Part shown: positions 4,090 through 44,750 of the stretch, piece after piece
How the letters are laid out: the number at the start of each line of letters is the position of its first letter
Numbering within the stretch: position 1 is the stretch's first letter
Assembly: GCA_001819395.1 (NCBI GenBank)
Contig: MHMQ01000033.1
Span: forward strand, 1-45,635
From: Candidatus Niyogibacteria bacterium RIFCSPLOWO2_01_FULL_45_48
Lineage (GTDB): Bacteria; Patescibacteriota; Minisyncoccia; HO2-45-28
DNA length: 45,635 nucleotides
Direction of reading: 5' to 3'
The notes under the pieces: generated by a model
Seen by the model: the letters and a program-made list of their open reading frames with translations, nothing else
What the model was told of the DNA's origin: nothing
The model's database searches: none
Translations under genes and position numbers: made by a program

Positions 4090-5451
4090 TCACTGTTTTT
4101 CTTCTTCATATAACTGCGCTCTAATTGTTTTCAATTCTTCTTTAAGCCGATCGTCTTTTTTCAGATCGTTTAATATTTTTGTATAGGCGTGTATGGCTGT
4201 TGTGTGATCGCGGCCGCCAAATTTCTTGCCGATATAAGGAAAAGAGCCGTTAAAATCCTCCCTCATAAGATACATGGCAATCTGTCTGGGTTTAACCACC
4301 TCCTTTCTTCTTGTTTTTTCAAAAAGATTTTTTTCAGGCACTTCGTAAAATTGGGCTATTTTTCTTATTATATGCTGAGAGCTCAGGGTTTTTCTTGGTT
4401 TCTCGTTTTTGATCAGTATTTCTTTGACTTCAGGCAGGCTTAACGGTCTTTTTTTGATTTTGGATCTCGCGATTATTGAATTGAGTGATCCTTCAAGCTC
4501 TCTTATGTTGGACTGAACGCTTGCCGCTATGTGTTCCAACACTTCGGAAGACGGCCTATATTCCTGTTTCTCGGCCGCCTTAGACTGGAGTATCGCGAGT
4601 CTTGTCTCATAGTCCGGTTCGGCTATATCGGCAATCATTCCGCCCTCAAAGCGGGATCTTAATCGGTCTTCTATGTTGGAAATGGACTTGGGCGGGCGGT
4701 CCGAGGAGAATATGATTTGTTTGTTTGCCTGATACAGGGTATTGAAAGTATGGAATATTTCTTCCTGCGTGGACGACCCGCGGCTTGATATAAACTGAAT
4801 ATCGTCGAGTATCATTACGTCATAGGAACGATATTTATCTTTAAAAATCCCTGTTTCGTTATTCCTGATGGCTGAGACCAGCTCATTGGCGAATCTTTCG
4901 GCTGAAATATAAAAGATCTTTTTTTCCGGACGGTCTGTTTTTATTTTGTTTCCTATGGCCTGCATTAAATGAGTCTTGCCCAGTCCCACTCCGCCGTAAA
5001 TAAAAAGCGGGTTATATAAAACCCCGAGGTTGTTTATTACCGATAAAGCCGAAGCGTGGACCAGCTCGTTAAACGTACCCACAATAAAGTTATCAAAAGT
5101 GTATCGTGGGTTGAGATTTGTCTCCCGATCTATATATATCTCCCTAAAGTCCATTTGTTCCTCGGCGTTTTTGGTTTCGGACACCTTTTTCTCTTGCGGA
5201 GCCTCCTTGGACACGACCTTGAACTCGATTGAACGCACTTCGGGTGAACGTAGGCGCAGAAATTTTAAAATATTTTTTTGGTATTTGTCCTCGAGCCACT
5301 CTTTAACGAAAGCTGACGGAGTTCCTACGGTTATTTTTCCTTCTGACTGGTCAGCGACAAAAGTGTTTTGAAACCATGTCGCGAAATTGGCCTTTGAGAC
5401 CGTCAGTTCCAGTTCCCCAAGGATTTCTCTCCAGAGCTCTTCGTTGGTCAT
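4090..5451 (-). CDS. dnaA: chromosomal replication initiator DnaA
   Basis: 453 aa. Walker A GGVGLGKTHL, Walker B ILDDIQF, and a C-terminal DNA-binding domain (VKPRQIAMYL..GGRDHTTAIHAY). Confidence 0.97.
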   Translation of the reverse strand: MTNEELWREILGELELTVSKANFATWFQNTFVADQSEGKITVGTPSAFVKEWLEDKYQKNILKFLRLRSPEVRSIEFKVVSKEAPQEKKVSETKNAEEQMDFREIYIDRETNLNPRYTFDNFIVGTFNELVHASALSVINNLGVLYNPLFIYGGVGLGKTHLMQAIGNKIKTDRPEKKIFYISAERFANELVSAIRNNETGIFKDKYRSYDVMILDDIQFISSRGSSTQEEIFHTFNTLYQANKQIIFSSDRPPKSISNIEDRLRSRFEGGMIADIAEPDYETRLAILQSKAAEKQEYRPSSEVLEHIAASVQSNIRELEGSLNSIIARSKIKKRPLSLPEVKEILIKNEKPRKTLSSQHIIRKIAQFYEVPEKNLFEKTRRKEVVKPRQIAMYLMREDFNGSFPYIGKKFGGRDHTTAIHAYTKILNDLKKDDRLKEELKTIRAQLYEEEKQ

Positions 5452-8624: not shown

Positions 8625-8645
8625 CCCTGGGATCGAATCCCAGGG
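8625..8645. repeat. hairpin repeat family P1, copy 1 (CCCTGGGAT-CGA-ATCCCAGGG)
   Basis: Perfect 9-bp stem with a 3-nt loop, 23 nt upstream of the Y1-transposase-like start codon. Confidence 0.9.
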
Positions 8646-8668
8646 AAGACTGTGCTACAATTATTTAT

Positions 8669-9364
8669 ATGCCCACCTTTAAGCCACAACTGGCCGATGA
8701 TGAGATATATCATATTTATAATCGCGGAATAGATGGCAAAATCGTTTTTCCTAAAAACGAGTACTATGAAAGATTTATTCAGGGATTAGGCTTGTTTAAC
8801 ACAGCAGATCCGGTAAACATTAAGGATGTGGTCGTCAATTCCAGCAACCCTGGGATTCGATCCCAGGGAAGAGGGGGCGAAAGGCTTGTTGATGTTGGCC
8901 TATTTAATCTTAGGCCGACACACTATCATTTGTTACTCAGACAAGTTGTCCCGAATGGCATATCCCTTTTTATGCAGAAAATTGGTACTGGTTTTACCAC
9001 TTTTTATAATTTAAAAAACAAGAGATCCGGTCCTTTGTTTCAGGGAGCCTTTCGAGCAAAGTTGGTAGACAAAGACCGTTATTTAAAGCACCTTTTTGCG
9101 TATATTGCGTTAAATAGCCTTGATAATGATATGCCGGAGTGGAGAGATGGCGGTATCACCGACCGGAAAAAAGCAGAAGAACTTCTGATCAATGCCAAGT
9201 GGTCAAATTTCGGGTCGTTGTTTAAAAATGACAAAAGATTTAATGGGGTTGTCAACGAAGATTTTGTGAAGGAATTTTTTGATAGCCATAGTGAACTCAA
9301 AGAGTTCGTTTTGTCCTGGGGTGTTGCCGAGGCGGATTTAATAAAAGAAATAACTGCTGGTTAA
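8669..9364 (+). CDS. HUH/Y1 tyrosine transposase-like protein (IS200 / REP-associated RAYT-like)
   Basis: 231 aa. N-terminal IYHIYNRG, HUH motif THYHLLL, FQGAFRAK, and C-terminal Tyr motif FAYIALNS. This matches the COG1943/Y1_Tnp pattern. The gene is flanked by P1 hairpins. Confidence 0.75.
   Translation: MPTFKPQLADDEIYHIYNRGIDGKIVFPKNEYYERFIQGLGLFNTADPVNIKDVVVNSSNPGIRSQGRGGERLVDVGLFNLRPTHYHLLLRQVVPNGISLFMQKIGTGFTTFYNLKNKRSGPLFQGAFRAKLVDKDRYLKHLFAYIALNSLDNDMPEWRDGGITDRKKAEELLINAKWSNFGSLFKNDKRFNGVVNEDFVKEFFDSHSELKEFVLSWGVAEADLIKEITAG
8848..8868. repeat. hairpin repeat family P1, copy 2, inside the CDS (CCCTGGGAT-TCG-ATCCCAGGG)
   Basis: Same 9-bp stem with the loop inverted (TCG instead of CGA). 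It is read in frame as NPGIRSQG within 8669-9364. Confidence 0.9.
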
Positions 9365-9368
9365 AAAT

Positions 9369-9387
9369 CCTGGGATCGAATCCCAGG
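9369..9387. repeat. hairpin repeat family P1, copy 3 (CCTGGGAT-CGA-ATCCCAGG)
   Basis: 8-bp stem and 3-nt loop, 5 nt after the stop codon of 8669-9364. Confidence 0.85.
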
Positions 9388-9410
9388 AATCCCAATAGTT
9401 TTCGGATAAT

Positions 9411-9429
9411 CCTGGGATCGAATCCCCGG
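9411..9429. repeat. hairpin repeat family P1, copy 4 (CCTGGGAT-CGA-ATCCCCGG, one stem mismatch)
   Basis: Direct reading. It shares the 5' flank AAT with copy 3. Confidence 0.8.
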
Positions 9430-9443
9430 AGAAATTGGTTTAT

Positions 9444-10220
9444 TCATGGAATTTCTACAAACTCGTCTAATATTTTCTCACACCCAGCGGGGAGTCGTTC
9501 TGGGGCAGACTGCACAATTCCCAGTCTTTTTAGTTCCATCGCCTGAAATATATTTATGCAGTTTATTTGTTTCACTCTTAACCGCGTGTTTCCGTTTGTG
9601 GGTTCAACACACACGCCACCAGATCCAGATTGATTTTTAAGCGCCTCTTGTCCCCTACCTGGGCACACGACGTTTTCAAAATTGTTTGCGGCATTTATTT
9701 GTTCTTGTCCGCCCGGAGAGCCGACGAATTTTTGAGCAGAACCCCCAAGTTCACCCAGTGGTTTCGGCGTTAGGTCGGCTGTGTTAGATGTTCCAAACAA
9801 CACCTCTCCCCAACTCGGGCACACTCCGCCGGGGCATTGCAACGTAAATCCCTTCGGCGCTTTTAGGGTGGTGAACGCCGGGTTTATGGTATTTAAAATG
9901 AGCCACGAGCCGAGGGCTATGGCCAAGCCCAAGACGGAGGCCGAAATCCTGTTTTTGGCGGCTTCAACCTGCGGAGGAGAAATGGCGCCGGCCATCCATT
10001 GGAAACCGGCGAATATAATGGAAAGAGTGGCGATTAAAGCGGCGCCCGCGATCATTACCGGAAAAAGCCAGCCAAGAAAATTAAGAAAACCGCCCGTGGC
10101 CCACTCGGGAACAGGGACCGGAGAGCTTCCTGTTATGTTTGCTTCAACCGCGGCAAAAACAGAAATAGGGCTTGCGAAAACGGCCGACGTTATTAAAAAA
10201 TAGAACATTTTAGAAAACAT
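9444..10220 (-). CDS. T4SS pilin-like (TrbC/VirB2-like) secreted membrane protein with Cys-containing C-terminal extension
   Basis: 258 aa. A signal peptide is followed by two hydrophobic helices separated by a short loop (..FAGFQWMAGAISPP..LGLAIALGSWLILNTINP). It is the last gene of the VirB4/VirB6 operon. Confidence 0.45.
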   Translation of the reverse strand: MFSKMFYFLITSAVFASPISVFAAVEANITGSSPVPVPEWATGGFLNFLGWLFPVMIAGAALIATLSIIFAGFQWMAGAISPPQVEAAKNRISASVLGLAIALGSWLILNTINPAFTTLKAPKGFTLQCPGGVCPSWGEVLFGTSNTADLTPKPLGELGGSAQKFVGSPGGQEQINAANNFENVVCPGRGQEALKNQSGSGGVCVEPTNGNTRLRVKQINCINIFQAMELKRLGIVQSAPERLPAGCEKILDEFVEIP

Positions 10221-11205
10221 TTATTGAAAAACTTTGTCTAGCGTCTTGTAATATGTTGGACAAATTTTTTACCAGAATATTTATTGACGCAAACCCTCCG
10301 GCGTCAGCCGTTGTTTTTAAACGAAGAATGTTTTTTGGTTCGTCCCCAAAAGCCTCTTGTCCGTTGACGATCCAGACGTAGTCTAAATTTACGCTTCCGT
10401 TTGAGAAAGAAAAGAAAAACGGATGGGCCACAAACGATTTTTCTTCCCCGGCAAAAATGGCGCCGCTTCTTTGTCCGCCAAAAGCCAGATTATTTTTCGT
10501 TCCCAAAAGAGCGTCGTGTTCGTAAATTAAAACTGACGGGCTTACCACATCTATGTTCACCGATTTTTTGGCGGTAATGTCGCCCGCGATGTTTGAAACT
10601 TCGAGGCTCACGGTGTGGGCAACGCCCGAAGAAAATCCGGCCGTGAACCGGAACGTGTTTTTTCCGGTTCCCGATTGCTGTTGTTTGAAATCATCGTCCA
10701 AGAACCAGCGAAAGATCAGGCCGGAGGAAGGAATTTTTCTTCCTCCAGAAACAATCTCCGGAAACGCGCTTACGGTTACCGCGGATTTCGGAGAAGCCAG
10801 CGCCTTGCCTTTGTACCAATAAGGGATTGATGTATCCGCATGCCACGGCATATAGATATCGGTTACGACGAACGAGAGTTCGGTGTCGTAACGAAGACCG
10901 TTCGTGTCGGTTGCCAAGACTACGAGCTTTTCTCTTGAGCCGAGAGAGCCGGCGGTGAAGGAGTATTCTTTGACACCCCCTCCCTGGGCGACGGTCCGGC
11001 CGTTATGGGTCCAGGTTATCTGCGCGCCGTTAAGATCGAACGAAGTCGTTGTCAGGCGCGCGGTTACGTACTGGCCCGGGGCCGGAGTGTCGGATGGCGC
11101 AAGTATGATGAAAAAATTCTGGGCCTGAAAATCAAATTGCGCCGAAGCCGGCAAAGCCAGAAAAACCAGAAGAAGTATTGTTGTTGATAAAAATTTGTTT
11201 GTCAT
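10210..11205 (-). CDS. secreted hypothetical protein (T4SS-like operon)
   Basis: 331 aa with an N-terminal signal peptide and a beta-rich composition. It overlaps the next gene by 11 nt. Confidence 0.6.
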   Translation of the reverse strand: MTNKFLSTTILLLVFLALPASAQFDFQAQNFFIILAPSDTPAPGQYVTARLTTTSFDLNGAQITWTHNGRTVAQGGGVKEYSFTAGSLGSREKLVVLATDTNGLRYDTELSFVVTDIYMPWHADTSIPYWYKGKALASPKSAVTVSAFPEIVSGGRKIPSSGLIFRWFLDDDFKQQQSGTGKNTFRFTAGFSSGVAHTVSLEVSNIAGDITAKKSVNIDVVSPSVLIYEHDALLGTKNNLAFGGQRSGAIFAGEEKSFVAHPFFFSFSNGSVNLDYVWIVNGQEAFGDEPKNILRLKTTADAGGFASINILVKNLSNILQDARQSFSINVF

Positions 11206-11208
11206 AAT

Positions 11209-11610
11209 TTATCCTCCGAAAAATGTTCTGAACTGCGGGCTGTTGTTATAAAGAATTATGGTCATGACCATCGCGGTGTACGTTGGAAGCAAATCGCCCA
11301 AAGGAATCATTTCAACCGCGCCTGACCACATAAGCATCTGGGGCCTGTCCAGTCCTTTGCTCATGACCCAGGCATAAATCGAAAACCACACTATACCGTC
11401 TATTATATCACCTACTATCGGAATCGAGCCGATAACTAAGTAGTCGGTAAGGTCGTTGAATCCGGCGATAGCCAGCATAAGCCCTCCATCGAGCATTTCT
11501 ACTTTCGGGCCTACCGGAGCTTTGGGGCCGGCATCGGACGGTCCGTCGTTTTTGCGCGATTCGGCAAGACTCATCGCCTGTTCGTTTTCAATTTGGTTTT
11601 GCTCCGCCAC
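11209..11610 (-). CDS. small integral membrane protein (T4SS-like operon)
   Basis: 133 aa, GTG start, with hydrophobic segments after a polar N-terminus. It lies 2 nt downstream of the VirB4-like stop. Confidence 0.55.
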   Translation of the reverse strand: MAEQNQIENEQAMSLAESRKNDGPSDAGPKAPVGPKVEMLDGGLMLAIAGFNDLTDYLVIGSIPIVGDIIDGIVWFSIYAWVMSKGLDRPQMLMWSGAVEMIPLGDLLPTYTAMVMTIILYNNSPQFRTFFGG

Positions 11611-11612
11611 TT

Positions 11613-13433
11613 TTATTTGTTATCGGGGCTAATTTCCTGTTTGGCCCTTTTAATCGCCAAAAGCTGGTGGGGGTCCGAGGTTATGACCTGGTCTTCGGTG
11701 TAAGACGATATTATTTTTATCGCCACATGTTTCAATCCCGCGAAAAACAACCCTTCGCCGACGCCTGATTCCAGTATCAAAAATTTTTCTTCGTCGGTCA
11801 GGGTGAATGTTTTTTGCACAAGGTCAATGGTCGCAGGTGATTGTTTTAGAAGAATCTGGATAGACGAGTTGGTGATGATGGGCACGCCGTAAGGAGAGCG
11901 TAGAAAGTCTCCGACGTCCTGCGTTATGGTTGCCACTCCCAAAAAATATTTCCTCGCTCGTTTGGCTATTCCGAATAAAAACGAGGCCCCTTGTTCTTCT
12001 TTCATGATCCACCACGCCTCGTCAATAACGAGAATTCTTTTTTTAATCGTTTTACGAACGGCGTTCCAGATATAGTGGACAATAAGATACATCGCGACCG
12101 GCCTTAGTTCGTCTTCCATATCCCGCACCGAGAAAGCCACCAGTTTTTTATTTATGTCCACGTTGGTCGGCTGGTTTATGAATCCGGCCCAGGTGCCCTG
12201 GGTGTATTTGCGCATTTTTTGGGCCAGCCCTTCCCCGCCTTCCATGTTCACGAGCACCAGTTCTAAGTCCGAAAGTATCGGCGGTATTTTGGAGGAAAAG
12301 TCGGAATCGGGCGTTATGTCCCTGGAGGCGTAAGTTTCGGTGATCGCCTTATCAAGCACCGAGTCTTCTTCGGGGGTGAGTCCGCCGAGCATTATTCTGA
12401 AAAGACCCACGAGATTTATTATGTTTGATCTCAATACGTCGGCCGGATCCTCGTCTTCGCGGGGTTTGGGTAGGTCAAACGGATTTATGTGATGCTGTGA
12501 CGAAAGGGAAATGTTGAAATATCTGCCGTCAACCGCTTCGGCCAAATATTCATACTCGCGTTCGGGATCGATTATTATTACGTCGGTATCAAACATAAGC
12601 GAGCGCAGTATCTCGAGTTTCGCCGCGTAGCTTTTTCCTGAACCGGATTTGGCAAAAATAACCGAGTTGTAATTTTCGAGGCTGAATCTGTCGAAAAGTA
12701 CTAAGCTGTTGTTGTGCCGGTTGACGCCGTAGAGGATTCCTTTGTTGGATGTCAGGTCGAACGAAACGAACGGAAAAAGGCTGGAAATCGGCGACGAATT
12801 AAGTTTGGAATTTATGCCTATCTTGTCGTATCCGAGCGGAAACACCGTCAGCAGTCCCTCGCCTTGCTGGAAAAGCGCGGGCTTGGCGTAAATCAGTTTG
12901 GATTCGAGCATCGATCTTATTTCCGATTCCTCGCGATCAAGCTCCTCGATTGTGTCGGCGTACAGGGTTATGTATAGGCCGAACGAGAAAAGTTTTTCTG
13001 TGGCCTGCTGTAGTCTGTCGCGGAGATCCTCAAGGTTTTGATGCGCGGCGTCCAGCATCGGGTCTCTCACCAGCCCCTTTTCTTCGCGCATGTGGATTTG
13101 CGACTGGACCTCGGCCACCTTTTTTTGCAGCTGTCTCAAAACCGTCGCGGTATCTATCGGGTGCACGTAAAGCGATATGTCGAAAACTTTGTCCATGTTT
13201 ATTATCGGACTAAACCAATTCATGGCGAGGTATCGCGGATACGAAAAAACAAAAAGGGTGCGGGCGATTTTTTCTCCGATTTTTATGAAGTTGGAGTTTA
13301 TTTCGAGCGCGGAGGGCGCAACGACGTCTTTTAACTCCAAAACCGCGGCCTCGTATATTTGCGAAGGCTCTATGGCGATTATTTCGTCATTTGCGCGCTC
13401 TTCTTTTTTTCCGAATAAATCTTTTAGAGCCAT
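11613..13433 (-). CDS. VirB4/TrbE/PrgJ-type T4SS ATPase
   Basis: Walker A FAKSGSGKSYAAK and Walker B RILVIDEAWW. The start is placed at ATG 13433 (MALKDLFG..), 2 nt after the upstream stop, giving 606 aa. The ORF-track start at 13586 would overlap the upstream gene by 151 nt. Confidence 0.85.
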   Translation of the reverse strand: MALKDLFGKKEERANDEIIAIEPSQIYEAAVLELKDVVAPSALEINSNFIKIGEKIARTLFVFSYPRYLAMNWFSPIINMDKVFDISLYVHPIDTATVLRQLQKKVAEVQSQIHMREEKGLVRDPMLDAAHQNLEDLRDRLQQATEKLFSFGLYITLYADTIEELDREESEIRSMLESKLIYAKPALFQQGEGLLTVFPLGYDKIGINSKLNSSPISSLFPFVSFDLTSNKGILYGVNRHNNSLVLFDRFSLENYNSVIFAKSGSGKSYAAKLEILRSLMFDTDVIIIDPEREYEYLAEAVDGRYFNISLSSQHHINPFDLPKPREDEDPADVLRSNIINLVGLFRIMLGGLTPEEDSVLDKAITETYASRDITPDSDFSSKIPPILSDLELVLVNMEGGEGLAQKMRKYTQGTWAGFINQPTNVDINKKLVAFSVRDMEDELRPVAMYLIVHYIWNAVRKTIKKRILVIDEAWWIMKEEQGASFLFGIAKRARKYFLGVATITQDVGDFLRSPYGVPIITNSSIQILLKQSPATIDLVQKTFTLTDEEKFLILESGVGEGLFFAGLKHVAIKIISSYTEDQVITSDPHQLLAIKRAKQEISPDNK

Positions 13434-13435
13434 AT

Positions 13436-14092
13436 TTAAATTCCGACTTGAGGCGCCCGGCCTCTTTCCAGCTCGCCCGGATTGAATAACCCGTAAAAAA
13501 GTTCGACCAGCTCTTCGGTGTTTAGCGGGACAGTCCTTACTCCGGTTGAAGCGATGGCACCCGAGACCGTCTCGGCTCTTTGCCAAAGCTGGGCACGGTA
13601 TTCTTCGAATTTTTCGTCGGCGACCTGTTTGGGGATTCTTTTTTCCCCGCCCATGAATTTTTTAAAAATCCCGCCAAGGCCTTCTTTTTTGCCTATTCCG
13701 AGAAGCGGCGGGACGAACGTAACCACAATGTAAAAACTTTTGGTTACGATTTTTGTATTTGACACGAAGGTGCGCACGAACTCCACGTATTCGCGCGTCT
13801 GTATTTTTAAGAGGTCGTTCGTCTGGTTCCTTTCCGCCTCACGGAGCGTTTCGAGATATGGTTCGATGTTAAGGCGTCTTGACTGGATCATTATTTGAAC
13901 CGAAAAGTCCAGTGAGTTTAAAAAATTCTGATATTGGGCGGTGATGGCCTCCTGTTCCTCTCCCGAGCGGAGGGCGAAATTGAGAGACGAGGCCATCAGG
14001 ATCATATGCAAATTGCCGTCGTCGGTTATCAGTATCCCGTCGCGGATTTCTTTTATTGGAACGAATTCCTGTGATGATAATGCTTTGGCCAT
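13436..14092 (-). CDS. VirB4 N-terminal-domain-like accessory protein (tentative)
   Basis: 218 aa. The pattern QEFVPIKEIRDGILITDDGNLHMILMASSLNFALRSGEEQEAI..FLNSLDFSVQI resembles N-terminal domains of Gram-positive-type VirB4 proteins. Assigned by recall only. Confidence 0.4.
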   Translation of the reverse strand: MAKALSSQEFVPIKEIRDGILITDDGNLHMILMASSLNFALRSGEEQEAITAQYQNFLNSLDFSVQIMIQSRRLNIEPYLETLREAERNQTNDLLKIQTREYVEFVRTFVSNTKIVTKSFYIVVTFVPPLLGIGKKEGLGGIFKKFMGGEKRIPKQVADEKFEEYRAQLWQRAETVSGAIASTGVRTVPLNTEELVELFYGLFNPGELERGRAPQVGI

Positions 14093-14097
14093 GCGTT

Positions 14098-14502
14098 TTA
14101 TTTAACCTTTTCCTTTACGTCCAGACTCCAGGCCAGATCTTTTAATTTACTTCCGGCGATTTTCGGAAGTACCAGTTTTTGTTCAATGGCCGGCGCCTTT
14201 TGAGCGTCCTCCTTTTTAACCTCCCGCCTTTTCCAGATGTAGAGTTTGGATTTGGTGTAGTGGGAGATGGCGCTGGACGCGATATTTATAAAAGGCTGGC
14301 CGTTTATTTTGTAAAAAGCGAGAGCCAGCGCTAGCGCCAAAATAGGCACCCCTAGGATAAAAAGGCCGATCATTCCTCCCAGAACGTAAATTATAAACGC
14401 CGCCGCCCCCCCTCCCAGAAGATAAATAAACTGCTTGAGCGTAAGCGGTCCAAAAATTTTGTCTTCAACTTCTATGAATTGCGGAACTGAAAATTGTCTC
14501 AT
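14098..14502 (-). CDS. PrgI/VirB3-like small membrane protein
   Basis: 134 aa. The N-terminus (VPQFIEVEDKIFGPLTLKQFIYLLGG) followed by two TM helices matches the PrgI-family pattern. It sits upstream of the VirB4-like genes. Confidence 0.55.
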   Translation of the reverse strand: MRQFSVPQFIEVEDKIFGPLTLKQFIYLLGGGAAAFIIYVLGGMIGLFILGVPILALALALAFYKINGQPFINIASSAISHYTKSKLYIWKRREVKKEDAQKAPAIEQKLVLPKIAGSKLKDLAWSLDVKEKVK

Positions 14503-14981
14503 GTTTTAGGTTCCCTATACGGGTCGGCCTTATCCGGATAACGGTTTTCTTTTTGCGCCCGCTCGACCTCTGTTTTTAACGGAGGGATGAAAACTTTTTC
14601 TTCAAGTTTTTGTTCGAACGGAGATTTTATCGCGGGCGGTTGTGTTGGTTGCGATGCAGTCCCCGTTTCTTTTATATCGTGGATACTCTTAAGGGACTCC
14701 CTTAAGGGCGCGAAAATCTGTTCGTTTACGTCGCCTGCGATATTTTTTGCGGTGTCGGCGCCGACTTCCAGCCTTTTTGAAAGACGTGAAACGTAATCGC
14801 GCGGGTGAGTAATTCCGGCGATGACGTTCATTGTTTCATCGTTAAGGTCCCCGATCCCGTCAATTGCCAGGCTGTATTTTTTTCCGATGGCCATTATCTT
14901 ATTCGCGACGTCTTCAGAAAAAATCGCGTCCTGAAGGTTCTGGGGCAGGTTTTTAAGTTTTTGTTGTAATTCTTCTTCCAT
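14499..14981 (-). CDS. hypothetical protein (T4SS-like operon)
   Basis: 160-aa soluble acidic ORF with a 4-nt overlap to the next gene. No family recognised. Confidence 0.55.
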   Translation of the reverse strand: MEEELQQKLKNLPQNLQDAIFSEDVANKIMAIGKKYSLAIDGIGDLNDETMNVIAGITHPRDYVSRLSKRLEVGADTAKNIAGDVNEQIFAPLRESLKSIHDIKETGTASQPTQPPAIKSPFEQKLEEKVFIPPLKTEVERAQKENRYPDKADPYREPKT

Positions 14982-15003
14982 GTTGGTTTTATCTCAAACT
15001 AGT

Positions 15004-17640
15004 TTACGGATTTTGTGGCCGGATAGGGGTGCCCGGGGGCTGAAATCCTGCTCCGCGCCCTCCTTGGTGCTGGCCTCCTGTCGGTGGTTGTTGCGGTGGA
15101 GGTTGTTGCGGTGGAGGTTGTTGCGGGGGTTGCGGCCGCGGCGGAAGTCCGAGGCGCCTTACGCCGTTAAGTCTGACCCAGTTTGAATAAGAAGTCGGAG
15201 GAACCTGTGTTTCCAGGGCGTCGGCTATGGCGTCTACGTTGTTGCCAAGTCCCGAAAGGGCTTGTTTAAGCGACCTTTCCATATCTCCGCCGGCTTTGAT
15301 TATATCTTGTATTTGCGCCGAAGTGATTCTGGCGAACGCTTGATTTATTGCCGCCGCCCCGTCGTTCTGGGAGACTTTTGTAAAGTCAATTTTGTTTGCG
15401 ACATCCGTTATTTGTTTGCCGACGGCGTTTGCGCTCATTGGAATCACGGTTAATGCGTCGCTTATGGCGCGGTCAATGGCTTGCTGGTTAACGTTGGGAA
15501 GAGCGCGGATTCGGCTCAACCCTGCCAAAAAGTCGCTGGCTCCGGCGCCTCCTCTGCCTTCGTACGCTTTGGCCGCCTTTTGGACATCTTCTTTCTTCAT
15601 CAAGTTGAATGAGCTGACCCTGAGCTGGTCGGGCAGAGAATCGATGGCGTTTGCCAGATCGTTTCCGGAAAGTTTCAGCGCGGCCTTGTTGAACTCGTCC
15701 GCGAATTTTTCCTGTTTTTCTATCGGGGATTGCGTCAGCGTGTTGCCTATCGTTGTTCTTATGTTGTTGGCCGTGGGACCGGTGTCGTTGTAAAGGGCAA
15801 CCAATTCGCGCTGTGACAGCTTGTCTTGTATGAATGAATTCTGCATTTGCTGGGGCAGGCCGTTAAAGAAGTTTGCTCTTTCGTTTTCCGGAGTCCGTTT
15901 GAACTGTTCCAGCCTTACGCCCTCTACCTTGCTTCTCGCGAGGCGCGTAAGTCCAGATTCAATAGAGTTTTTGTTTTCCGGGGAGACATTGGCTGACGTA
16001 AGCATCTGGGCTATTTCTGCCTCGGACATGCTGTTTAATAGGTTGCCTCTGGCCACCGTCGTAAGGCCGGCGGCGTAGGTCGCCTGGTCAACCGGCGAAA
16101 GGAGCTTCGCTGATTCAAGTTGTCCCTTTCTTATTTCGTCAAGCCCGCCGAGTTTCTTTCCTCTTTCGAGCGCGCGGATCGCCGCTCCTCCCATCATCCC
16201 GCCGACAAGAGGTATATTTGAAAGACTCCTGACAATCTTTCCGCGGTTTTCTTCGGTTGAGAGGCCCTCAGATGTTCTGGCAACAGCTCTTCCGGTGTAG
16301 CGTTTAACCCGGTCCCAAGCATATCCTCTCGCGGCCTTTGCTCCTATATCAGCCCATTGGGCCGCAACTCCGCCAATTTTTTTTGCCAGAAGCACGCTTG
16401 TGAGAAGCATTATTATTAAAAGTGTGTAGTAGCCGATCAAAGGGAAGTTGGTTATGAAGGCCGATCCGAGAAGGTTTGACGCAGCGCCTGCGTCCGCCTG
16501 AAACAAGTTTTTGGCTTGTCCGTATCTTATCATTGAAACCGTTACTCCGAAAAGAAAGAAAAACGCGGGAGCGAAAAACGCTTGTTTGAAAAGCTCGCTC
16601 CACCATTGTTTGGCGTGCGAATCAAGTCCCGGAACGACCCAGAACAAAAACGCGATGGGTGAAAGAATCATCAAAAACCATAAAATCACGACGCGTATTA
16701 AGAGGGCCAGACCCGCGAACGCCAGAGCGAACATGGCCACAAGTATGAACACGATTGTTCCGAGCATTGCTATTATGACCTGGCTCAATGTCGTGGCGAG
16801 CTCTTTGTTTTTCCGGTCGTTGGCCGCGCTGACAAGCTCTTTTTGTGCCCGATTCGTTTCCTCGCTTTCGACCAAAAATTCGTCTTCTTCCGTCCCAATC
16901 CCGTATTTGTCCAGGACATTTTTATATTGTTGGTCAACCGTTTCTATATTTTTATAGTCAGGCGAAAAACCGGAAAACATCACATTTGGATTTGCTCCGG
17001 CAAGAAACATGACCGACAGTTTTTCCCCTCCGGGATAGAAAAATTTGACCATAGAATTTGCCGAATAAACGACATACTGCGTTATCAAAAACGAAAAGTT
17101 TATTAAAATTGCCGCGGTTATCAGTTTTGGAAGAAGTTTTTTTGCGCCGTACGTTTCAATCTGTAAAATCGTGGCTATGGCGATTGTGAGAAGAATAAAT
17201 ATGAAAAACAGATTTGCCGTGTCGCGGACCATTTCCCATCCCTGGTATATAGCTCCCACGTTGTAGGTTGTTGGGTCCAGGGTCAGACCGGCCACTTGGT
17301 CGAAAAGCATTCCAAAAACCATGAACATTGCAGACACGAAAGCAAGGATATAAAAAATCGGCCATGCGACTAGTTTTCCTATACAAAGTCCGGTTATTGG
17401 TTCTTTGGCTATGTCGCATGTTGCTCCACTCAGAACACTCGAAAGGTCTATTTTTGCGGGAGAAGACGCGTTTGCGGCCGGCGTTGTGTTTGAGTTTGTC
17501 GCCTCTTCAATCAGCGCGGCTTCTTCCTCGGGGGGCAGGCCCTCCACGTCTTGGGCGAATGTTTTGAGCACCGATACCGCTGTCAGAGCGGCCAAAACCA
17601 GAACCAATATTATTATTTTTTTGTAATTTAACACAGTCAT
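15004..17640 (-). CDS. VirB6/TrbL-like polytopic membrane protein with long C-terminal domain and Pro/Gln-rich tail
   Basis: 878 aa with a signal/TM segment and then at least 6 hydrophobic helices in the first ~450 aa. The tail is PPRPQPPQQPPPQQPPPQQPP. Operon context supports the call. Confidence 0.5.
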   Translation of the reverse strand: MTVLNYKKIIILVLVLAALTAVSVLKTFAQDVEGLPPEEEAALIEEATNSNTTPAANASSPAKIDLSSVLSGATCDIAKEPITGLCIGKLVAWPIFYILAFVSAMFMVFGMLFDQVAGLTLDPTTYNVGAIYQGWEMVRDTANLFFIFILLTIAIATILQIETYGAKKLLPKLITAAILINFSFLITQYVVYSANSMVKFFYPGGEKLSVMFLAGANPNVMFSGFSPDYKNIETVDQQYKNVLDKYGIGTEEDEFLVESEETNRAQKELVSAANDRKNKELATTLSQVIIAMLGTIVFILVAMFALAFAGLALLIRVVILWFLMILSPIAFLFWVVPGLDSHAKQWWSELFKQAFFAPAFFFLFGVTVSMIRYGQAKNLFQADAGAASNLLGSAFITNFPLIGYYTLLIIMLLTSVLLAKKIGGVAAQWADIGAKAARGYAWDRVKRYTGRAVARTSEGLSTEENRGKIVRSLSNIPLVGGMMGGAAIRALERGKKLGGLDEIRKGQLESAKLLSPVDQATYAAGLTTVARGNLLNSMSEAEIAQMLTSANVSPENKNSIESGLTRLARSKVEGVRLEQFKRTPENERANFFNGLPQQMQNSFIQDKLSQRELVALYNDTGPTANNIRTTIGNTLTQSPIEKQEKFADEFNKAALKLSGNDLANAIDSLPDQLRVSSFNLMKKEDVQKAAKAYEGRGGAGASDFLAGLSRIRALPNVNQQAIDRAISDALTVIPMSANAVGKQITDVANKIDFTKVSQNDGAAAINQAFARITSAQIQDIIKAGGDMERSLKQALSGLGNNVDAIADALETQVPPTSYSNWVRLNGVRRLGLPPRPQPPQQPPPQQPPPQQPPTGGQHQGGRGAGFQPPGTPIRPQNP

Positions 17641-20309: not shown

Positions 20310-20657
20310 ATGAAGAAGGTTTTGATATCTGTTTTTGTGGTCATTTTCATGGTTTTTGCGCCGTTTTCAGTTCTTGGCAACAAGAACTTGGTTTCGGCCG
20401 CTCTGGTTGGCGGGCCGTTCGGAGGACAGGTCCTCAAAATAGACAGGTTCTGTGCCGGAGGTTTTACATTCATCCTCGGTCCTCCAAGCCCGGGCCTTTA
20501 TTTTTATCCTTACTTCGCGGTTACCTACCTTTATGGTCCTCCAAACAGGCCAGGTAAATGGGCTTTGGGCCTTGCCAGCGCCGGCGGTGTTTGTGTTGCC
20601 GGAAAAAAAACATATCCGACCCAATACACGGTCATAATGATCGGGACCAGCTTATAG
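20310..20657 (+). CDS. small secreted hypothetical protein
   Basis: 115 aa with a clear signal peptide and a Gly/Pro/Tyr-rich mature part. TATAAT lies 7 nt upstream of the ATG region. Confidence 0.5.
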   Translation: MKKVLISVFVVIFMVFAPFSVLGNKNLVSAALVGGPFGGQVLKIDRFCAGGFTFILGPPSPGLYFYPYFAVTYLYGPPNRPGKWALGLASAGGVCVAGKKTYPTQYTVIMIGTSL

Positions 20658-21524
20658 TTTTGGGATATTTTTTGCCAAACAAGCCCAATTTTCGAGCGAC
20701 AAATCTTCCGCTCGCGCATTCTCTTTCACCCCGCATTTTACTCGACATCCGATGTCGAGTAGGCCCTTCAGATTGTTTTTGAGGAGTTTGCGGGGGTGTG
20801 AAAAACCGGCCTTAACTATGTCAAAAAACCCTTCTTGGCTGATTTTATGCTGGCGAAAGAAGTCTTTTTCGCGTCTTTTGAACACCACAACCGCCGAATC
20901 AACCTTTGGTTGAGGCCAAAAATTGCCTTTTTTGACCAAAAAAGCAATTTTTGGATCAGCGTATGCCTGTACGGAAATGGACAAAACACTCTTTTTCTCT
21001 TTTTTTTCGACAAGAGCCGTGCTCTTGTCAGAAATGGTTAGAACCCGACTCTGATCGGCCACGATTCTTTTGGCCACCTCTTTTTGCAACATTAAAACCA
21101 CCATTTTTATCCCAAACTTGGTTTCAGACAGGAGGAGGCGCAAGATCTGGCCGGTAAGATAGTAAGGAATATTGGCCACCACCTTGTCTACGGTCAAAGT
21201 GACAAGAGCCGTGCTCTTGTCAGAAATGGTCAGAGCACGGCTCTTGTCATTCTTGCCACGGAAAAAATCGCGGATGTCGGCACGAACGAGGGTCAAACGG
21301 CTCGAGAGCACGAAAGTTTCAAACTTTTTGTTTAAAAAATCAAAAAGTTTAGGGTCTTTTTCGACGGCGACGACCCTCGCGCCCGTTTTCAAAAGCTCTT
21401 CGGTTAAAATTCCCCTGCCGGGACCTATTTCCAGAACAATATCTTTTGGGCCTGTTTCGGCCAAATCCGCCATTTTTTGCGCGATGCGTTTCGATATCAG
21501 AAAATTTTGTCCGAGTTTGGCCAT
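20652..21524 (-). CDS. rsmA: 16S rRNA (adenine1518/1519-N6)-dimethyltransferase
   Basis: QNFL start, SAM motif LEIGPGRGILT, ANIPYY, LQKEVAKR, and PKVDSAVV. It contains two extra 16-aa segments compared with E. coli KsgA from memory. Confidence 0.9.
   Translation of the reverse strand: MAKLGQNFLISKRIAQKMADLAETGPKDIVLEIGPGRGILTEELLKTGARVVAVEKDPKLFDFLNKKFETFVLSSRLTLVRADIRDFFRGKNDKSRALTISDKSTALVTLTVDKVVANIPYYLTGQILRLLLSETKFGIKMVVLMLQKEVAKRIVADQSRVLTISDKSTALVEKKEKKSVLSISVQAYADPKIAFLVKKGNFWPQPKVDSAVVVFKRREKDFFRQHKISQEGFFDIVKAGFSHPRKLLKNNLKGLLDIGCRVKCGVKENARAEDLSLENWACLAKNIPKL
20739..20761. repeat. perfect 10-3-10 hairpin inside rsmA (TACTCGACAT-CCG-ATGTCGAGTA)
   Basis: Direct reading. It encodes LLDIGCRV in a C-terminal segment whose length equals that of E. 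coli KsgA, so there is no net insertion. Confidence 0.85.
21009..21056. repeat. 48-nt palindromic element, in-frame in rsmA (copy A)
   Basis: It starts with GACAAGAGC-CGT-GCTCTTGTC (9-3-9). The first 30 nt are identical to copy B. It encodes DQSRVLTISDKSTALV. Confidence 0.9.
21201..21248. repeat. 48-nt palindromic element, in-frame in rsmA (copy B)
   Basis: GACAAGAGCCGTGCTC ... GAGCACGGCTCTTGTC forms a 16-nt inverted repeat, plus an internal 9-3-9 hairpin. It encodes DKSRALTISDKSTALV. Confidence 0.9.
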
Positions 21525-26615: not shown

Positions 26616-26662
26616 ATAGCGAGCACTAAAACCCCTTTATTTTCAACGTTTTTTAGCTTCCC

Positions 26663-26703
26663 TACCCAAACTTACCTACCTACCGGCAGGCAGGGTTTGG
26701 GTA
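26663..26703 (-). repeat. long hairpin TACCCAAAC ... GTTTGGGTA with nested CCTACCTACCGG/CAGGCAGG stem
   Basis: The 9-bp outer stem shares the CCCAAAC/GTTTGGG arms of family P2. The inner mismatches become G-U pairs only on the minus-strand RNA, downstream of the dksA-like gene. Confidence 0.6.
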
Positions 26704-26710
26704 ATAAAAT

Positions 26711-26731
26711 GGTTAGAACCGAGTTCTAACC
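26711..26731. repeat. hairpin repeat family P3, copy 1 (GGTTAGAAC-CGA-GTTCTAACC)
   Basis: Perfect 9-3-9 hairpin. Its 3' arm contains the final Gly codon and the stop codon (26726-26728) of the dksA-like gene. Confidence 0.9.
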
Positions 26732-30970: not shown

Positions 30971-31876
30971 ATGGCGCAGTCGGACAAAAACGATTTTTTA
31001 AGGCAATATTTGGAATATCTGGAAATTGAGAAGGGGCGGAGTTTGAAGACGGTTGAAAATTACGGCCGGTATCTCTCTGTTTTTTTTAATTTTTCAAAAA
31101 TTGCTACGCCCGTGGACATCACCGACGATGTGGTGCGCGATTTTCGGATGTGGCTTAATCGCAAAAACCTCAAGAAGAAAACGCAAAATTATCACCTGAT
31201 TGCGCTTCGCGGATTTTTGAAATATCTGGCGCGTAAAGAAATCCCGTCTTTGGCTGCCGAAAAAATAGAGCTGGCCAAAACGGGCGAGCGGGAAATTGAC
31301 CTGATTTCAGAAGATGATTTGGAGCGACTGCTTTCTGCTCCCGCCAGCAAAGAACCCAAAACTTTGCGTGATAAAGCGATTCTGGAACTTTTGTTTTCAA
31401 CAGGGCTCCGCGTCTCCGAGCTTTGTTCGCTTAACCGCGACTCCGTCAATTTAAAAAAGGGCGAGTTTTCAATTCGCGGGAAAGGAGAAAAAATGCGGGT
31501 TGTGTTTTTGTCCGATGGCGCGAAAATCGCTGTTGAAAATTGGCTTGGCAAACGCGCCGATGTCCACGAAGCTCTTTTTGTCAACTTCAAGCCCGGAAAA
31601 AAAGATAATCTGGACGAAAACGCGCGCCTGACGCCTCGTTCGGTTGAACGCACCATAAAACATTACGCGATTAAGGCCGGAATTTCCAAAAAAGTTACAC
31701 CTCACACCTTGCGTCATTGCTTTGCCACCGACCTTCTTTCGGGCGGAGCGGATTTGCGTTCGGTTCAAATGATGCTTGGGCACGCAAACATTTCAACCAC
31801 TCAAATTTACACCCACATAACCAACCGCCAGTTAAAAGATATCCATAAGGCATTTCATGCGAAAAAAAGAAAATAA
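30971..31876 (+). CDS. XerC/XerD-family tyrosine recombinase
   Basis: 301 aa with an SAM-like N-terminal domain. Catalytic pattern: ..GLRVSEL.., HTLRHCFAT, LGHANISTTQIYTH. Confidence 0.9.
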   Translation: MAQSDKNDFLRQYLEYLEIEKGRSLKTVENYGRYLSVFFNFSKIATPVDITDDVVRDFRMWLNRKNLKKKTQNYHLIALRGFLKYLARKEIPSLAAEKIELAKTGEREIDLISEDDLERLLSAPASKEPKTLRDKAILELLFSTGLRVSELCSLNRDSVNLKKGEFSIRGKGEKMRVVFLSDGAKIAVENWLGKRADVHEALFVNFKPGKKDNLDENARLTPRSVERTIKHYAIKAGISKKVTPHTLRHCFATDLLSGGADLRSVQMMLGHANISTTQIYTHITNRQLKDIHKAFHAKKRK

Positions 31877-34985: not shown

Positions 34986-35014
34986 CAGTGGTTAGAACTC
35001 GGTTCTAACCACTG
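34986..35014. repeat. hairpin repeat family P3, copy 2 (extended 13-3-13: CAGTGGTTAGAAC-TCG-GTTCTAACCACTG)
   Basis: Perfect stem. The loop is inverted (TCG) relative to copy 1. Confidence 0.9.
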
Positions 35015-35039
35015 TTGGTCAGAACCGAGTTCTAACCAA
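35015..35039. repeat. hairpin repeat family P3, copy 3 (TTGGTCAGAAC-CGA-GTTCTAACCAA, one mismatch)
   Basis: Directly abuts copy 2. The mismatch becomes a G-U pair on the minus-strand RNA. Confidence 0.85.
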
Positions 35040-37158: not shown

Positions 37159-37416
37159 ATGAAGATTTTTTACTCGAGCAAATTTGTTCGAGAATATGAA
37201 CAATTACCCGTAAAGGTTCAGGATGCTGCCGAGAACAGAACGCTGATTTTTAGAAAAAATCTTTTTGATAAAAGATTGCGAACGCACAAACTTTCAGGAA
37301 GAATGAATAGATATTGGTCGTTTTCGGTTGATTATAAATATAGGATTATTTTTGAGTTTGCGTCCGAAAATATTATTTGGTTCCACTCAGTTGGCGACCA
37401 TTCGATTTATCAATGA
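37159..37416 (+). CDS. RelE/ParE-superfamily type II toxin
   Basis: 85 aa (..LRTHKLSGRMNRYWSFSVDYKYRIIFEF..IIWFHSVGDHSIY). Its stop overlaps the cca start (ATGA). Confidence 0.6.
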   Translation: MKIFYSSKFVREYEQLPVKVQDAAENRTLIFRKNLFDKRLRTHKLSGRMNRYWSFSVDYKYRIIFEFASENIIWFHSVGDHSIYQ

Positions 37417-38876
37417 AAATCCCGAAGGAAATTAAAGAGGTTTATGACGAACTGGCGAATGCCGGATACGAGGTGTATCTTGTCGGCGGGTGCGTGCGGG
37501 ACCTGTTGCGCGGAGTTAAGCCGAAGGACTGGGACATAACGACGAACGCGAAGCCGGAAGAGGTTCAAAAAATATTTCCGGACAGTTTTTATGAAAACGA
37601 TTTCGGAACAGTTGGAGTAAAGACCGCCTCCGAAGATCCGACTTTGGCCGTTGTTGAAATAACACCATACCGCGTTGAGGAAAAATATTCCGACAAACGA
37701 CATCCCGACTCCGTGAAATTCGCCGACAAACTTGAGGACGATTTGAAACGACGCGATTTCACGACAAACGCTCTTGCGCTCCAACTTGGACGTGAAACGT
37801 CCAAGTTGGGGGTCGTTGATCTTTTTGATGGTGAAAAAGACCTGAAAAATAAAATTATCCGCGCGGTTGGCAATCCGAAAGAAAGGTTTGAAGAAGATGC
37901 TTTGCGAATAATGCGGGCGGTGAGATTCGCGGCGGAGCTTGGTTTTTCGATTGAAGACAAAACACGAGACGCGCTTGAGGCCAAAAAGGGCCTTCTGGAA
38001 TTTGTCTCAAAAGAAAGGGTCAGAGACGAGCTCATAAAGATTTTTGAAACAAGCCGGCCATCTTTGGGTTTTGAGTTAATGCGTGAACTCGGTATTTTAA
38101 AATACGTTATGCCGGAAGTTGAAGAGGGCTGGATGGTGGGACAAAACAAGCACCACATTTATACCGTCTGGGAACATAACGTGCGCACCATGGATTACGC
38201 AGCCAAAGAAGGCTGGTCTTTGGAACTGAGAATCGCATCCCTCCTTCACGATGTGGCCAAGCCTAGAACCAAGGAAGGCGATGGCCCAGATTCAACTTTT
38301 TACAACCACCAGATGGTCGGCGCGAAAATGGCCGCCCAGATTTTGTCCAGATTGCGTTTTTCTAAAAAAACGATCGAGAAAGTGGTCAAGCTCGTGCGCT
38401 ATCATATGTTTTATTACAACGTCGGCGAGGTGACCGATTCCTCGGTCAGGCGTCTTTTGGCCAAAGTCGGGCCCGATGACATGAACGACCTGATAAACGT
38501 GCGCATAGCAGAGCGTATCGGTTCGGGCGTACCCAAGGCCGAACCCTACAAGCTTCGCCATTTTCGGTTCATGGTTGAAAAGCTCCAACGCGACCCTATT
38601 TCGGTGCGTATGCTAAAACTCAACGGTGACGAGGTGATGAAAATTTGCGAAATTCCGGCCGGGCCTAAAGTCGGCGCGGTTCTGGATGTTTTGCTCGAGG
38701 ATGTGCTTGACGATCCGAAACTTAACGATAAGGATTATCTTTCCGGAAAAGCCAAGGAATTATGCGCGGTGTCGGACTCCGAGTTGTCTAAAATGCGTGA
38801 AGATGCTAAAAAAAAGAAAGTCGGATTTGAGGAGGAAGAGGTTGGAAAGATAAAAAAGAAATATTATGTGAAGTAA
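37413..38876 (+). CDS. cca: CCA-adding enzyme / tRNA nucleotidyltransferase with HD domain
   Basis: The start is moved to ATG 37413 (MKIPKEI..). Motifs include GGCVRDLLRGVKPKDWD and RRDFTTNALA, plus an HD domain (LLHDVAKP). Confidence 0.85.
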   Translation: MKIPKEIKEVYDELANAGYEVYLVGGCVRDLLRGVKPKDWDITTNAKPEEVQKIFPDSFYENDFGTVGVKTASEDPTLAVVEITPYRVEEKYSDKRHPDSVKFADKLEDDLKRRDFTTNALALQLGRETSKLGVVDLFDGEKDLKNKIIRAVGNPKERFEEDALRIMRAVRFAAELGFSIEDKTRDALEAKKGLLEFVSKERVRDELIKIFETSRPSLGFELMRELGILKYVMPEVEEGWMVGQNKHHIYTVWEHNVRTMDYAAKEGWSLELRIASLLHDVAKPRTKEGDGPDSTFYNHQMVGAKMAAQILSRLRFSKKTIEKVVKLVRYHMFYYNVGEVTDSSVRRLLAKVGPDDMNDLINVRIAERIGSGVPKAEPYKLRHFRFMVEKLQRDPISVRMLKLNGDEVMKICEIPAGPKVGAVLDVLLEDVLDDPKLNDKDYLSGKAKELCAVSDSELSKMREDAKKKKVGFEEEEVGKIKKKYYVK

Positions 38877-38900: not shown

Positions 38901-38937
38901 CGGGATGCAGTATATCGGCAGTACGTGCGCTTCGGGG
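38901..38937 (+). pseudogene. tRNA-Pro 5'-half fragment
   Basis: CGGGATGCAGTATATCGGCAGTACGTGCGCTTCGGGG matches nt 1-37 of the adjacent tRNA-Pro(CGG) with 2 substitutions, including U8 to C. It then diverges. Confidence 0.75.
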
Positions 38938-44735: not shown

Positions 44736-44750
44736 ACATTTTATGACGCA

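Follow-up and report, generated by a model that had tools for sequence, protein, structure and literature searches.

Short palindromic repeats are known from inside bacterial genes. Repetitive extragenic palindromes (REPs) of the GTAG/CGTC-tagged kind lie within open reading frames (ORFs) of several bacteria, in frame, as singles or dimers and sometimes twice per ORF. They hit housekeeping genes such as uvrA, recB and those for tRNA synthetases, two Xanthomonas species have different REPs at roughly the same position of recB, and GTAG-type REPs are associated with genes for REP-associated tyrosine transposases (RAYTs) (Di Nocera et al. 2013, PMC3733652). Two inverted REPs and a spacer form a REP doublet forming hairpins (REPIN), which folds as one long hairpin, and each such family is paired with a RAYT (Bertels & Rainey 2011, PMC3116915). 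Here, we investigated hairpins carried in frame by the rsmA (ksgA) gene of Candidatus Niyogibacteria bacterium RIFCSPLOWO2_01_FULL_45_48, an ultra-small member of the Patescibacteria from groundwater. The window is the whole stretch of DNA analyzed, 45,635 nt of contig MHMQ01000033.1 (assembly GCA_001819395.1). A first-pass annotation, made from the letters alone, had noticed two 48-nt palindromic copies in this gene, called here copy A (21009-21056) and copy B (21201-21248). These inserts are probably REP/REPIN-like repeats that the gene tolerates in frame and whose families are found together with RAYT-like Y1/HUH genes.

Other systems also place palindromes inside genes. Rickettsia palindromic elements (RPEs), in the account of Ogata et al. 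2000, are reportedly palindromic repeats carried in frame by conserved genes, at surface regions of proteins that stay functional. RPE-1 is said to measure about 100-150 bp, and we know of no transposase for it. The rsmA elements resemble RPEs as in-frame palindromic insertions in surface-type loops of a conserved protein; they differ in being 21 or 48 nt long, in their link to Y1 genes and in their host, in a comparison made by description only. The double-hairpin elements of Allomyces (fungal mitochondria) are mobile two-hairpin elements inside protein and rRNA genes, belong to organelle genomes and are not known to have an associated HUH enzyme. An RPE-like process in this genome had been proposed in the first-pass annotation. 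Dispersed in-frame hairpin families are indeed present, and their closest match is REP/REPIN repeats with RAYT-like enzymes, not RPE-1 at its reported 100-150 bp. The same annotation called in-frame palindromes known from Rickettsia, as they are said to be, and otherwise rare. Short in-frame REPs, dimers included, had already been published outside Rickettsia (PMC3733652).

Like intragenic REPs, the rsmA hairpins are short in-frame palindromes, single or dimeric, in a housekeeping gene; at 21 nt they fall within the 20-40 nt typical of REPs. Unlike them, they are untagged, have a uniform 9-3-9 layout with a CG-containing 3-nt loop and sit in a Patescibacteria host; several families have settled at the same four positions of a single gene throughout a clade, and copy numbers appear low, at 3-6 per family in 45 kb. 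The likeness to REPINs lies in the folding of copy B and of an intergenic doublet at 34990-35037, each as one long hairpin, in singlets that resemble decayed doublets (copy A, for example) and in the pairing of a hairpin family with its own repeat-flanked Y1/HUH gene (the GACAAGAGC family in contig L040, the C-terminal hairpin class in contig L036). REPINs are extragenic and 70-110 nt long, whereas the doublet here has 48 nt and is translatable. Our literature search found nothing relevant on RAYTs or REPs in Patescibacteria, and no description of untagged 9-3-9 families, of a turnover of families at four fixed positions within a single gene throughout a clade or of a Y1 gene that itself contains its cognate hairpin in frame. 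REPs in frame, single or dimeric, are known, and the rsmA case adds to a rare known mode of protein change. What appears to be new is the phylum, the untagged 21-nt families, their turnover at fixed sites in one gene and the cognate hairpin inside each Y1 gene.

RsmA is intact and varies in length at three sites

The gene product matches the Pfam family RrnaAD at 2.8e-49 (168 bits, gathering cut-off 24), with 284 residues aligned over 254 profile positions, and therefore carries about 30 extra residues. We aligned it with 25 of its closest homologues, all from Patescibacteria. In this 26-protein alignment, the S-adenosylmethionine-binding GxGxG motif and the NxPY and FxPxPxVxS motifs are invariant, and length variation is limited to three sites. 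Site 1 follows ADIRDF and is the variable link between motif III (DIRD) and motif IV NIPY (NIPYY), site 2 follows LRLLL and site 3 follows QKEVAxRI. Compared with B. subtilis KsgA, the window protein has 14 additional residues at site 3, a clean insertion at the S168/K169 junction. KsgA K169, in loop 12, contacts 16S rRNA helices 45 and 27, and loop 12 is a length-variable specificity loop (bioRxiv 10.1101/2021.09.15.460497).

An AlphaFold model of RsmA has a mean predicted local distance difference test score (pLDDT) of 83.9. Its only low-confidence stretches are residues 91-110 and 156-175, drawn as weak β-hairpins, and pLDDT falls below about 50 only at the two inserts. Foldseek returned KsgA structures as the top matches, the best being B. 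subtilis KsgA 6ifs. The alignment, the B. subtilis comparison and the model thus all bear out the earlier remark that the inserts sit where other KsgA proteins are shorter, and on the model both fall in loops, as low-confidence stretches. The four in-frame hairpin places in RsmA are tolerant ones: two length-variable loops, a third loop and a segment of the C-terminal domain. With the frame open and the motifs conserved, the hairpin copies would be translated within an otherwise intact RsmA. The gene is, to our knowledge, universally conserved. The word "essential," used for it before, is too strong; rsmA/ksgA is dispensable in E. coli. The features of the window's gene are as follows.

20652-21524, minus strand: rsmA/ksgA coding sequence (CDS), an intact ORF of 290 aa with all methyltransferase motifs present
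21201-21248, minus strand: copy B, site 1 doublet, GACAAGAGC-CGT-GCTCTGACC, ATTTCT, GACAAGAGC-ACG-GCTCTTGTC, encoding DKSRALTISDKSTALV
21009-21056, minus strand: copy A, site 3 (KsgA loop 12), a decayed plus an intact hairpin, encoding DQSRVLTISDKSTALV
21111-21127: site 2, hairpin CCCAAACTTGGTTTCAG, decayed, at 3 mismatches from the CCCAAACTNAGTTTGGG family surrounding the Y1 gene 44094-44735
20739-20761: C-terminal-domain hairpin TACTCGACATC-C-GATGTCGAGTA, perfect 11-1-11, encoding LLDIGCRV with no length change
21249-21257, minus strand: arm-like 9-mer GGCAAGAAT, directly upstream of copy B on the gene strand
21192-21200, minus strand: arm-like 9-mer ACTTTGACC, directly downstream of copy B on the gene strand, resembling the GTTCTGACC arm

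The 48-nt copies are doublets of 21-nt hairpins

A repeat finder recovered copies A and B as a 44-nt match at 91% identity, and the 21-mer GACAAGAGCCGTGCTCTTGTC occurs exactly twice in the window against 0 expected (100 shuffles). The copies are 192 nt (64 codons) apart with identical orientation and frame. Their initial 30 nt are the same, and the final 18 match at 12 positions. On the orientation and frame, the identical 30 nt and a figure of about 70% for the remainder, the first-pass annotation was right. It had described the element as a 9-3-9 unit plus a third arm. The 9-3-9 unit stands; in place of the third arm, the gene strand is better read as two inverted 21-nt 9-3-9 hairpins with a 6-nt spacer, ATTTCT, between them. 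The shared 30 nt are then the spacer, the second hairpin and 3 more nt.

Copy B folds as one 17-bp hairpin (-20.1 kcal/mol, z = -8.9). Its first hairpin has a 5' arm and an inner 3' arm of the GACAAGAGC type, and the outer end of the 3' arm (GACC) is of the older GGTCAGAAC type. Copy A folds as a single 9-bp hairpin only (-9.3 kcal/mol, z = -3.4). Its first half (21036-21056), GATCAGAGT-CGG-GTTCTAACC, is a decayed GGTYAGAAC-type hairpin with 4 mismatches to the family, and its second half (21009-21029) is an intact GACAAGAGC-ACG-GCTCTTGTC. Copy A is therefore chimeric, a decayed hairpin of the GGTYAGAAC type joined to one of the GACAAGAGC type, so that the earlier picture of two insertions of one 48-nt element keeps its two copies and loses the simple double insertion. 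The identical 30 nt suggest copying between sites or hairpin replacement: a unit may have been copied between sites 1 and 3, or both second hairpins may have been overwritten from one source.

The remaining features fit into the same family scheme. The 9-mer at 21192-21200 is exactly the 9 nt by which site 1 of the window exceeds that of relatives (alignment with P0002 and P0003), and relatives have GGTCARAAT at the position of 21249-21257; both 9-mers may be leftover arms. The decayed hairpin at site 2 was assigned to the CCCAAACT family, and relatives carry intact hairpins of other families there. The C-terminal hairpin, previously given as 10-3-10, scored here as a perfect 11-1-11. It is perfect and adds no length, as described before; it is not unrelated to the other elements, since its hairpin class flanks a Y1 gene in a relative. 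Altogether, the window's rsmA holds traces of 4 of the 5 hairpin families found in the window. We looked for a conserved flanking tetranucleotide (guide/target) for the rsmA families, and reading their flanks showed no consistent motif.

Related rsmA genes carry different hairpins at the same sites

We codon-aligned or scanned the DNA of 12 related Patescibacteria rsmA genes (handles beginning with P, 49-73% protein identity). In 11 of the 12, hairpins lie at the same four sites with different stems; in the exception, P0004, the site 1 doublet is present and no perfect 8-bp hairpin was scored. At least nine or ten stem families are represented, namely GACAAGAGC/GCCAAGAGC, GGTYAGAAC, GTYAAACAT, GTCGGATAC, TCCGAAC, GGACAAAG, CCAAGTC, CTTGGA, ACCCTAGGG and GGACAGCCC. 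Site 1 shows the variety, and the diversity of stem families at sites 2 and 3 and at the C-terminal site is comparable.

Site 1, P0002, P0003 and P0004: GGTCAGAAC-CGA doublet
Site 1, P0006 and P0016: single hairpin of the GGTCAGAAC-CGA type
Site 1, P0007: GCCAAGAGC-TTA
Site 1, P0005: GTTAAACAT-CCG
Site 1, P0009: TGTCAAACAT-CGA
Site 1, P0014: TCCGAAC doublet
Site 1, P0020: ACCCTAGGG doublet

The P0002 element occupies exactly the codons of copy B in the same 21+6+21 layout, and its stems differ at 4 of 9 positions, all four compensated. In P0016, hairpins of a single family are read in two different phases, as GQNRVLT and as VRTRFWP. At the C-terminal site, P0005 has the 25-mer of P0002 in exact reverse complement. 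For the C-terminal hairpin we compared 7 distinct orthologous sequences: 90.7% of cells are paired, against 24-47% in slid controls, and both partners have changed in 7 of the 11 pairs. The two phases, the reverse-complement 25-mer and the covariation together indicate conservation in DNA and not in peptide. For the same reason we rejected a conserved peptide motif that is palindromic by chance: one and the same hairpin sequence appears in more than one phase, and hairpins have been inverted at their site.

Sites of one genome also tend to share a family: sites 2 and 3 in P0005, sites 1 and 3 in P0007, site 1 and the C-terminus in P0009, and site 2, the C-terminus and uvrD in P0020. This is the pattern of genome-wide families that are kept alike or replaced, not of independent drift, and across the clade the same four rsmA sites are filled by families resident in each genome. 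The ortholog alignment thus makes the inserts lineage-specific and palindrome-encoded. Orthologs do not encode matching segments in non-palindromic DNA, an outcome that would have spoken against mobile palindromes; palindromic DNA stands at these sites. At the protein level, palindrome-compatible heptapeptides are enriched 2.3-fold at site 1 and 4.9-fold at site 3 among 121 homologues, a signal that comes mostly from the ~20 closest.

RAYT-like Y1/HUH genes carry their own hairpins

The window holds two genes for RAYT-like Y1/HUH proteins, each surrounded by hairpins of a family of its own.

8669-9364, plus strand (region 8625-9430): RAYT-like Y1/HUH gene, family CCCTGGGAT-CGA-ATCCCAGGG; hairpins at 8625 (5' flank), 8848 (internal, in frame), 9368 and 9410 (3' flank)
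44094-44735, plus strand (region 43940-45189): RAYT-like Y1/HUH gene, family CCCAAACT-N-AGTTTGGG; hairpins at 43940 and 44044 (5' flank), 44258 (internal, in frame), 44751 and 45173 (3' side)

We compared these loci with further Y1 hairpin loci in other contigs (L036 4142-4887, L040 456-1193, L012 6897-7385 and L035 5444-5464). The Y1 gene of L040 is accompanied by GACAAGAGC hairpins on both the 5' and the 3' side and also within its sequence, ~200 nt from the start. The same flank-internal-flank layout, with a different family each time, is found at the window's two Y1 genes and in L036 and L012, and the L035 gene has the internal GACAAGAGC hairpin only. Every RAYT-like Y1 gene examined therefore has its own hairpin inside the CDS. 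The Y1 gene of L036 is flanked by the hairpin GTCAAACAY, which is found again, in frame, at the C-terminal site of the rsmA gene located 6 kb away on that contig. The first-pass annotation had suggested that Y1/HUH enzymes of the same window drive the process. The link between hairpin families and Y1 genes holds, and no Y1 gene cognate to GACAAGAGC was found within the window.

The P-x-H-x-H and Y-x-x-x-N columns (HUH and Tyr) are invariant in all six Y1 proteins, so that, as in RAYTs, the HUH motif and the catalytic Tyr of the Y1_Tnp fold are present. The protein of 44094-44735 matches Pfam Y1_Tnp at 2.7e-5 (24.7 bits, cut-off 23). A profile built from the six sequences gave E. coli TnpA-REP (4er8) as its best match in the PDB (E = 0.0019), and a phmmer search of the PDB with a single Y1 protein gave no match. 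Unlike RAYTs, these proteins are longer (213-231 aa) and divergent, and their own CDS holds the cognate hairpin. On these profile matches, the six are a putative divergent group related to RAYT. We infer that the Y1 enzymes may move the hairpins.

The internal hairpin of the Y1 genes has some further regularities. It is located ~160-200 nt into the gene, where the sequence immediately ahead of the HUH motif is variable and rich in gaps. Its loop has the opposite orientation to that of the 5' flank copy, and its reading phase differs between genes. The internal hairpin of the L036 gene encodes VKHRMFD, the peptide found at site 1 of RsmA in P0009.

Hairpin families are dispersed in the window and in other genomes

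We counted 17 places in the window with a perfect hairpin whose stem has at least 9 bp; shuffled sequence gave 1.7 hits. Dispersal within the window was seen for the GGTYAGAAC, CCCAAACT and CCCTGGGAT families, and the places below lie outside rsmA and the Y1 genes.

34990-35037: intergenic 48-nt doublet of the GGTYAGAAC family, GGTTAGAAC-TCG-GTTCTAACC, ACTGTT, GGTCAGAAC-CGA-GTTCTAACC
26711-26731: intergenic single hairpin GGTTAGAAC-CGA-GTTCTAACC, sharing the 14-mer AAATGGTTAGAACC with copy A
37781-37809, plus strand: perfect 13-3-13 hairpin CCAACTTGGACGT-GAA-ACGTCCAAGTTGG, in frame (LGRETSK) in the CCA-adding enzyme gene

The intergenic doublet has a fold of -20.7 kcal/mol (z = -9.1) and is 88-92% identical to the in-frame insert at rsmA site 3 of L001 and L005. 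The 14-mer AAATGGTTAGAACC occurs in the window at 21032, in copy A, and at 26707 (26707-26720), against 0 expected, as the earlier remark on a block common to copy A and the downstream hairpin region had it. Just upstream of that GGTTAGAAC hairpin, at 26660-26700, CCCAAAC-family arms TACCCAAAC ... GTTTGGGTA stand around a 23-nt loop with a second small palindrome (CCTACCGGCAGG...), which has the look of a hairpin nested in a hairpin. In the CCA-adding enzyme gene (37377-38876), the hairpin falls in the head domain, and its stem family is that of the C-terminal rsmA hairpin of L091 (LGRGTSK) and of the L091 uvrD doublet.

Hairpin copies inside reading frames are thus present in rsmA, the Y1 genes and cca, and in other contigs GACAAGAGC hairpins lie in frame in cysS (L055 and L031) and uppP/BacA (L075). 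About half of the GACAAGAGC copies in other contigs are outside long ORFs. Scans of genome and metagenome contig collections with GACAAGAGCNNNGCTCTTGTC returned many low-GC, Patescibacteria-type contigs; many of the high-GC matches were set aside as chance or unrelated families, such as L064. The search beyond rsmA that the first-pass annotation called for thus found hairpin families in other genes and other genomes, and the hairpin family is not confined to one gene. In cysS, two Patescibacteria contigs have hairpins at the same place, the linker between the catalytic and the DALR domain (L055 7781-7847, a doublet; L031 5132-5152, a single GACAAGAGC hairpin), a second case of same-site occupancy in a conserved gene.

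Proposed mechanism and points against it

On the preferred reading, that of REP/REPIN-like repeats, the unit would be a 21-nt 9-3-9 hairpin, often paired head to head into a 48-nt doublet that folds as one long hairpin. Existing hairpins would be replaced, flipped or overwritten in place, either through cleavage and joining of single-stranded hairpin DNA by a Y1 enzyme or through recombination or template switching between hairpin copies. In this genome, 3 of the 4 doublet hairpins would have been converted from the GGTYAGAAC to the GACAAGAGC type, with the 30-nt tract common to both sites. The repeated use of the same rsmA sites is simplest to explain if hairpins attract or template new hairpins.

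We rejected an origin by simple tandem duplication or duplication within the gene: 192 nt separate the copies, other palindromes occupy both sites in relatives, and the doublet also occurs between genes. Inter-site copying is kept only as an explanation of the shared 30 nt.

Several observations weigh against the REP/REPIN-like reading. The GACAAGAGC family is confined to rsmA within the 45-kb window. The GTAG/CGTC tag of classical REPs is absent from the flanks and stems read, and a recurrent one-sided CTAC is seen only in the CCCAAACT family, where 3 of 5 copies have it. All six Y1 proteins match the NCBIfam model REP_Tyr_transpos NF047646 below its 80-bit cut-off (best E 3.4e-9; 17.2 bits for the protein of 8669-9364). 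No insertion or excision junction was seen among the sequences compared. The pair L001 and L004 does speak for recent change: the two match fully over ~1.34 kb apart from one patch of ~100 nt, which includes the site 3 doublet in only one of them. That patch has flanking substitutions, however, and it fits homologous recombination between alleles as well as transposition. Likewise, rsmA is a hot spot, in favor of the reading, with 2.0 perfect hairpins per kb over 12 loci against 0.26 per kb in the flanking DNA (7.6-fold; binomial p ~1e-9), but this statistic is colored by ascertainment, the loci having been fetched through rsmA, and by shared ancestry. Finally, orthologs with as little as 49% protein identity still have hairpins at the same four sites, which could mean selection there.

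Alternative explanations

A selected function at these sites is the main rival. The hairpins would then be protein-binding or RNA-processing sites that regulate rsmA or a uvrD-rsmA operon, or docking sites for Y1 enzymes, with the peptides as a by-product. We consider this unlikely. It would account for the four-site occupancy down to 49% protein identity, the 7.6-fold enrichment of hairpins in rsmA over its flanks, the stems that stay paired through double changes and the Y1 genes, which also retain an internal hairpin at a fixed position. However, P0004 and P0016 have no hairpin at site 3, P0014 and P0016 have none at the C-terminus, and copy A and the site 2 hairpin of the window are decayed. 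Searches of the rsmA hairpins gave neither an Rfam family nor a terminator above threshold, only sub-threshold look-alikes (e.g., miRNA precursor models). The same families also occur in cysS, uppP, cca, uvrD and intergenic DNA, and the inserts are absent from the more distant RsmA proteins in the protein alignment.

The hairpins might also have arisen with no transposase at all, from an old insertion or duplication in rsmA kept palindromic by template switching (quasi-palindrome correction) and inverted-arm recombination, the 48-nt copies being made by intragenic copying. The identical 30-nt tract, the loops and spacers flipped in place between sites and genomes, and the partly converted arms, which resemble conversion tracts, are all what such a process would leave. 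Identical stems at unlinked loci are left unexplained, however, among them those of the L036 Y1 flanks and rsmA, of L091 rsmA and uvrD, of the window's intergenic doublet and the rsmA genes of L001 and L005, and of cysS in two genomes; so is the regular flank-internal-flank layout at Y1 genes. We judge this account quite improbable.

That the inserts are an assembly artefact or a feature of a pseudogene, as the metagenome source, the short contigs of relatives and the capacity of repeats to mislead assemblers might suggest, is very hard to credit, given an independent assembly (L089) with 100% identity over 2408 nt that includes both rsmA inserts, an open frame with every catalytic motif intact and comparable inserts in many samples and projects.

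Within the REP/REPIN-like reading, we tentatively put forward a stronger version, which is more doubtful than the reading itself. In this clade rsmA might act as a long-lived landing pad, its pre-existing hairpins being the preferred targets of Y1 enzymes, so that each family on becoming dominant takes the place of its predecessor at the same four sites, exact to the codon. If so, rsmA would be a fossil record of the co-evolution of hairpins and enzymes, KsgA loop 12, which contacts 16S rRNA helices 45 and 27, would be continually remodelled, and the in-frame cognate hairpin of the Y1 genes would belong to this system too, for instance in self-recognition or self-regulation.

Significance

Ultra-small, gene-dense Patescibacteria genomes still hold several systems of repeat plus enzyme. 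With intergenic room scarce, the repeats are housed in conserved genes such as rsmA, cysS, uppP, cca and uvrD, and in those of the enzymes themselves. One gene with many families at the same sites in many genomes is a natural experiment on how REP and Y1 specificities change together and how repeats are replaced. The 7- and 16-residue inserts are driven by nucleic acid and should not be taken for functional protein motifs without evidence, despite the position of one of them in an rRNA-contacting loop.

Neighboring genes and other observations

A 115-aa ORF with no Pfam match (20310-20657, plus strand) is convergent with rsmA and overlaps its 3' end by 6 nt; it was also gene-called in L001, L004 and L089. 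Upstream of the uvrD-rsmA block, the region 9878-17340 is homologous and syntenic to L038 9157-15869, where the genes carry the Pfam families PrgI, TraC-like and TraG-like P-loop. These matches suggest that the cluster may consist of conserved secretion or conjugation-like genes. In L091 (GCA_022563755.1), uvrD lies upstream of rsmA at 3008-5004, is called as two overlapping ORFs and has a cluster of CTTGGACAC hairpins at 3287-3324.

Elsewhere in the window, a tyrosine recombinase gene lies at 30971-31876. The tRNA-Pro(CGG) gene at 38970-39041 has a partial copy of tRNA-Pro on each side; the one at 38901-38936 is a 5' half, and the one at 39103-39139 is a 3' half preceded by a hairpin CGGACTTCC-TGC-GGAAGTCCG (39071-39091); the stretch 45212-45284 was grouped with 38901-39139 in this observation. 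The partial copies could be the scar of an integrated element.

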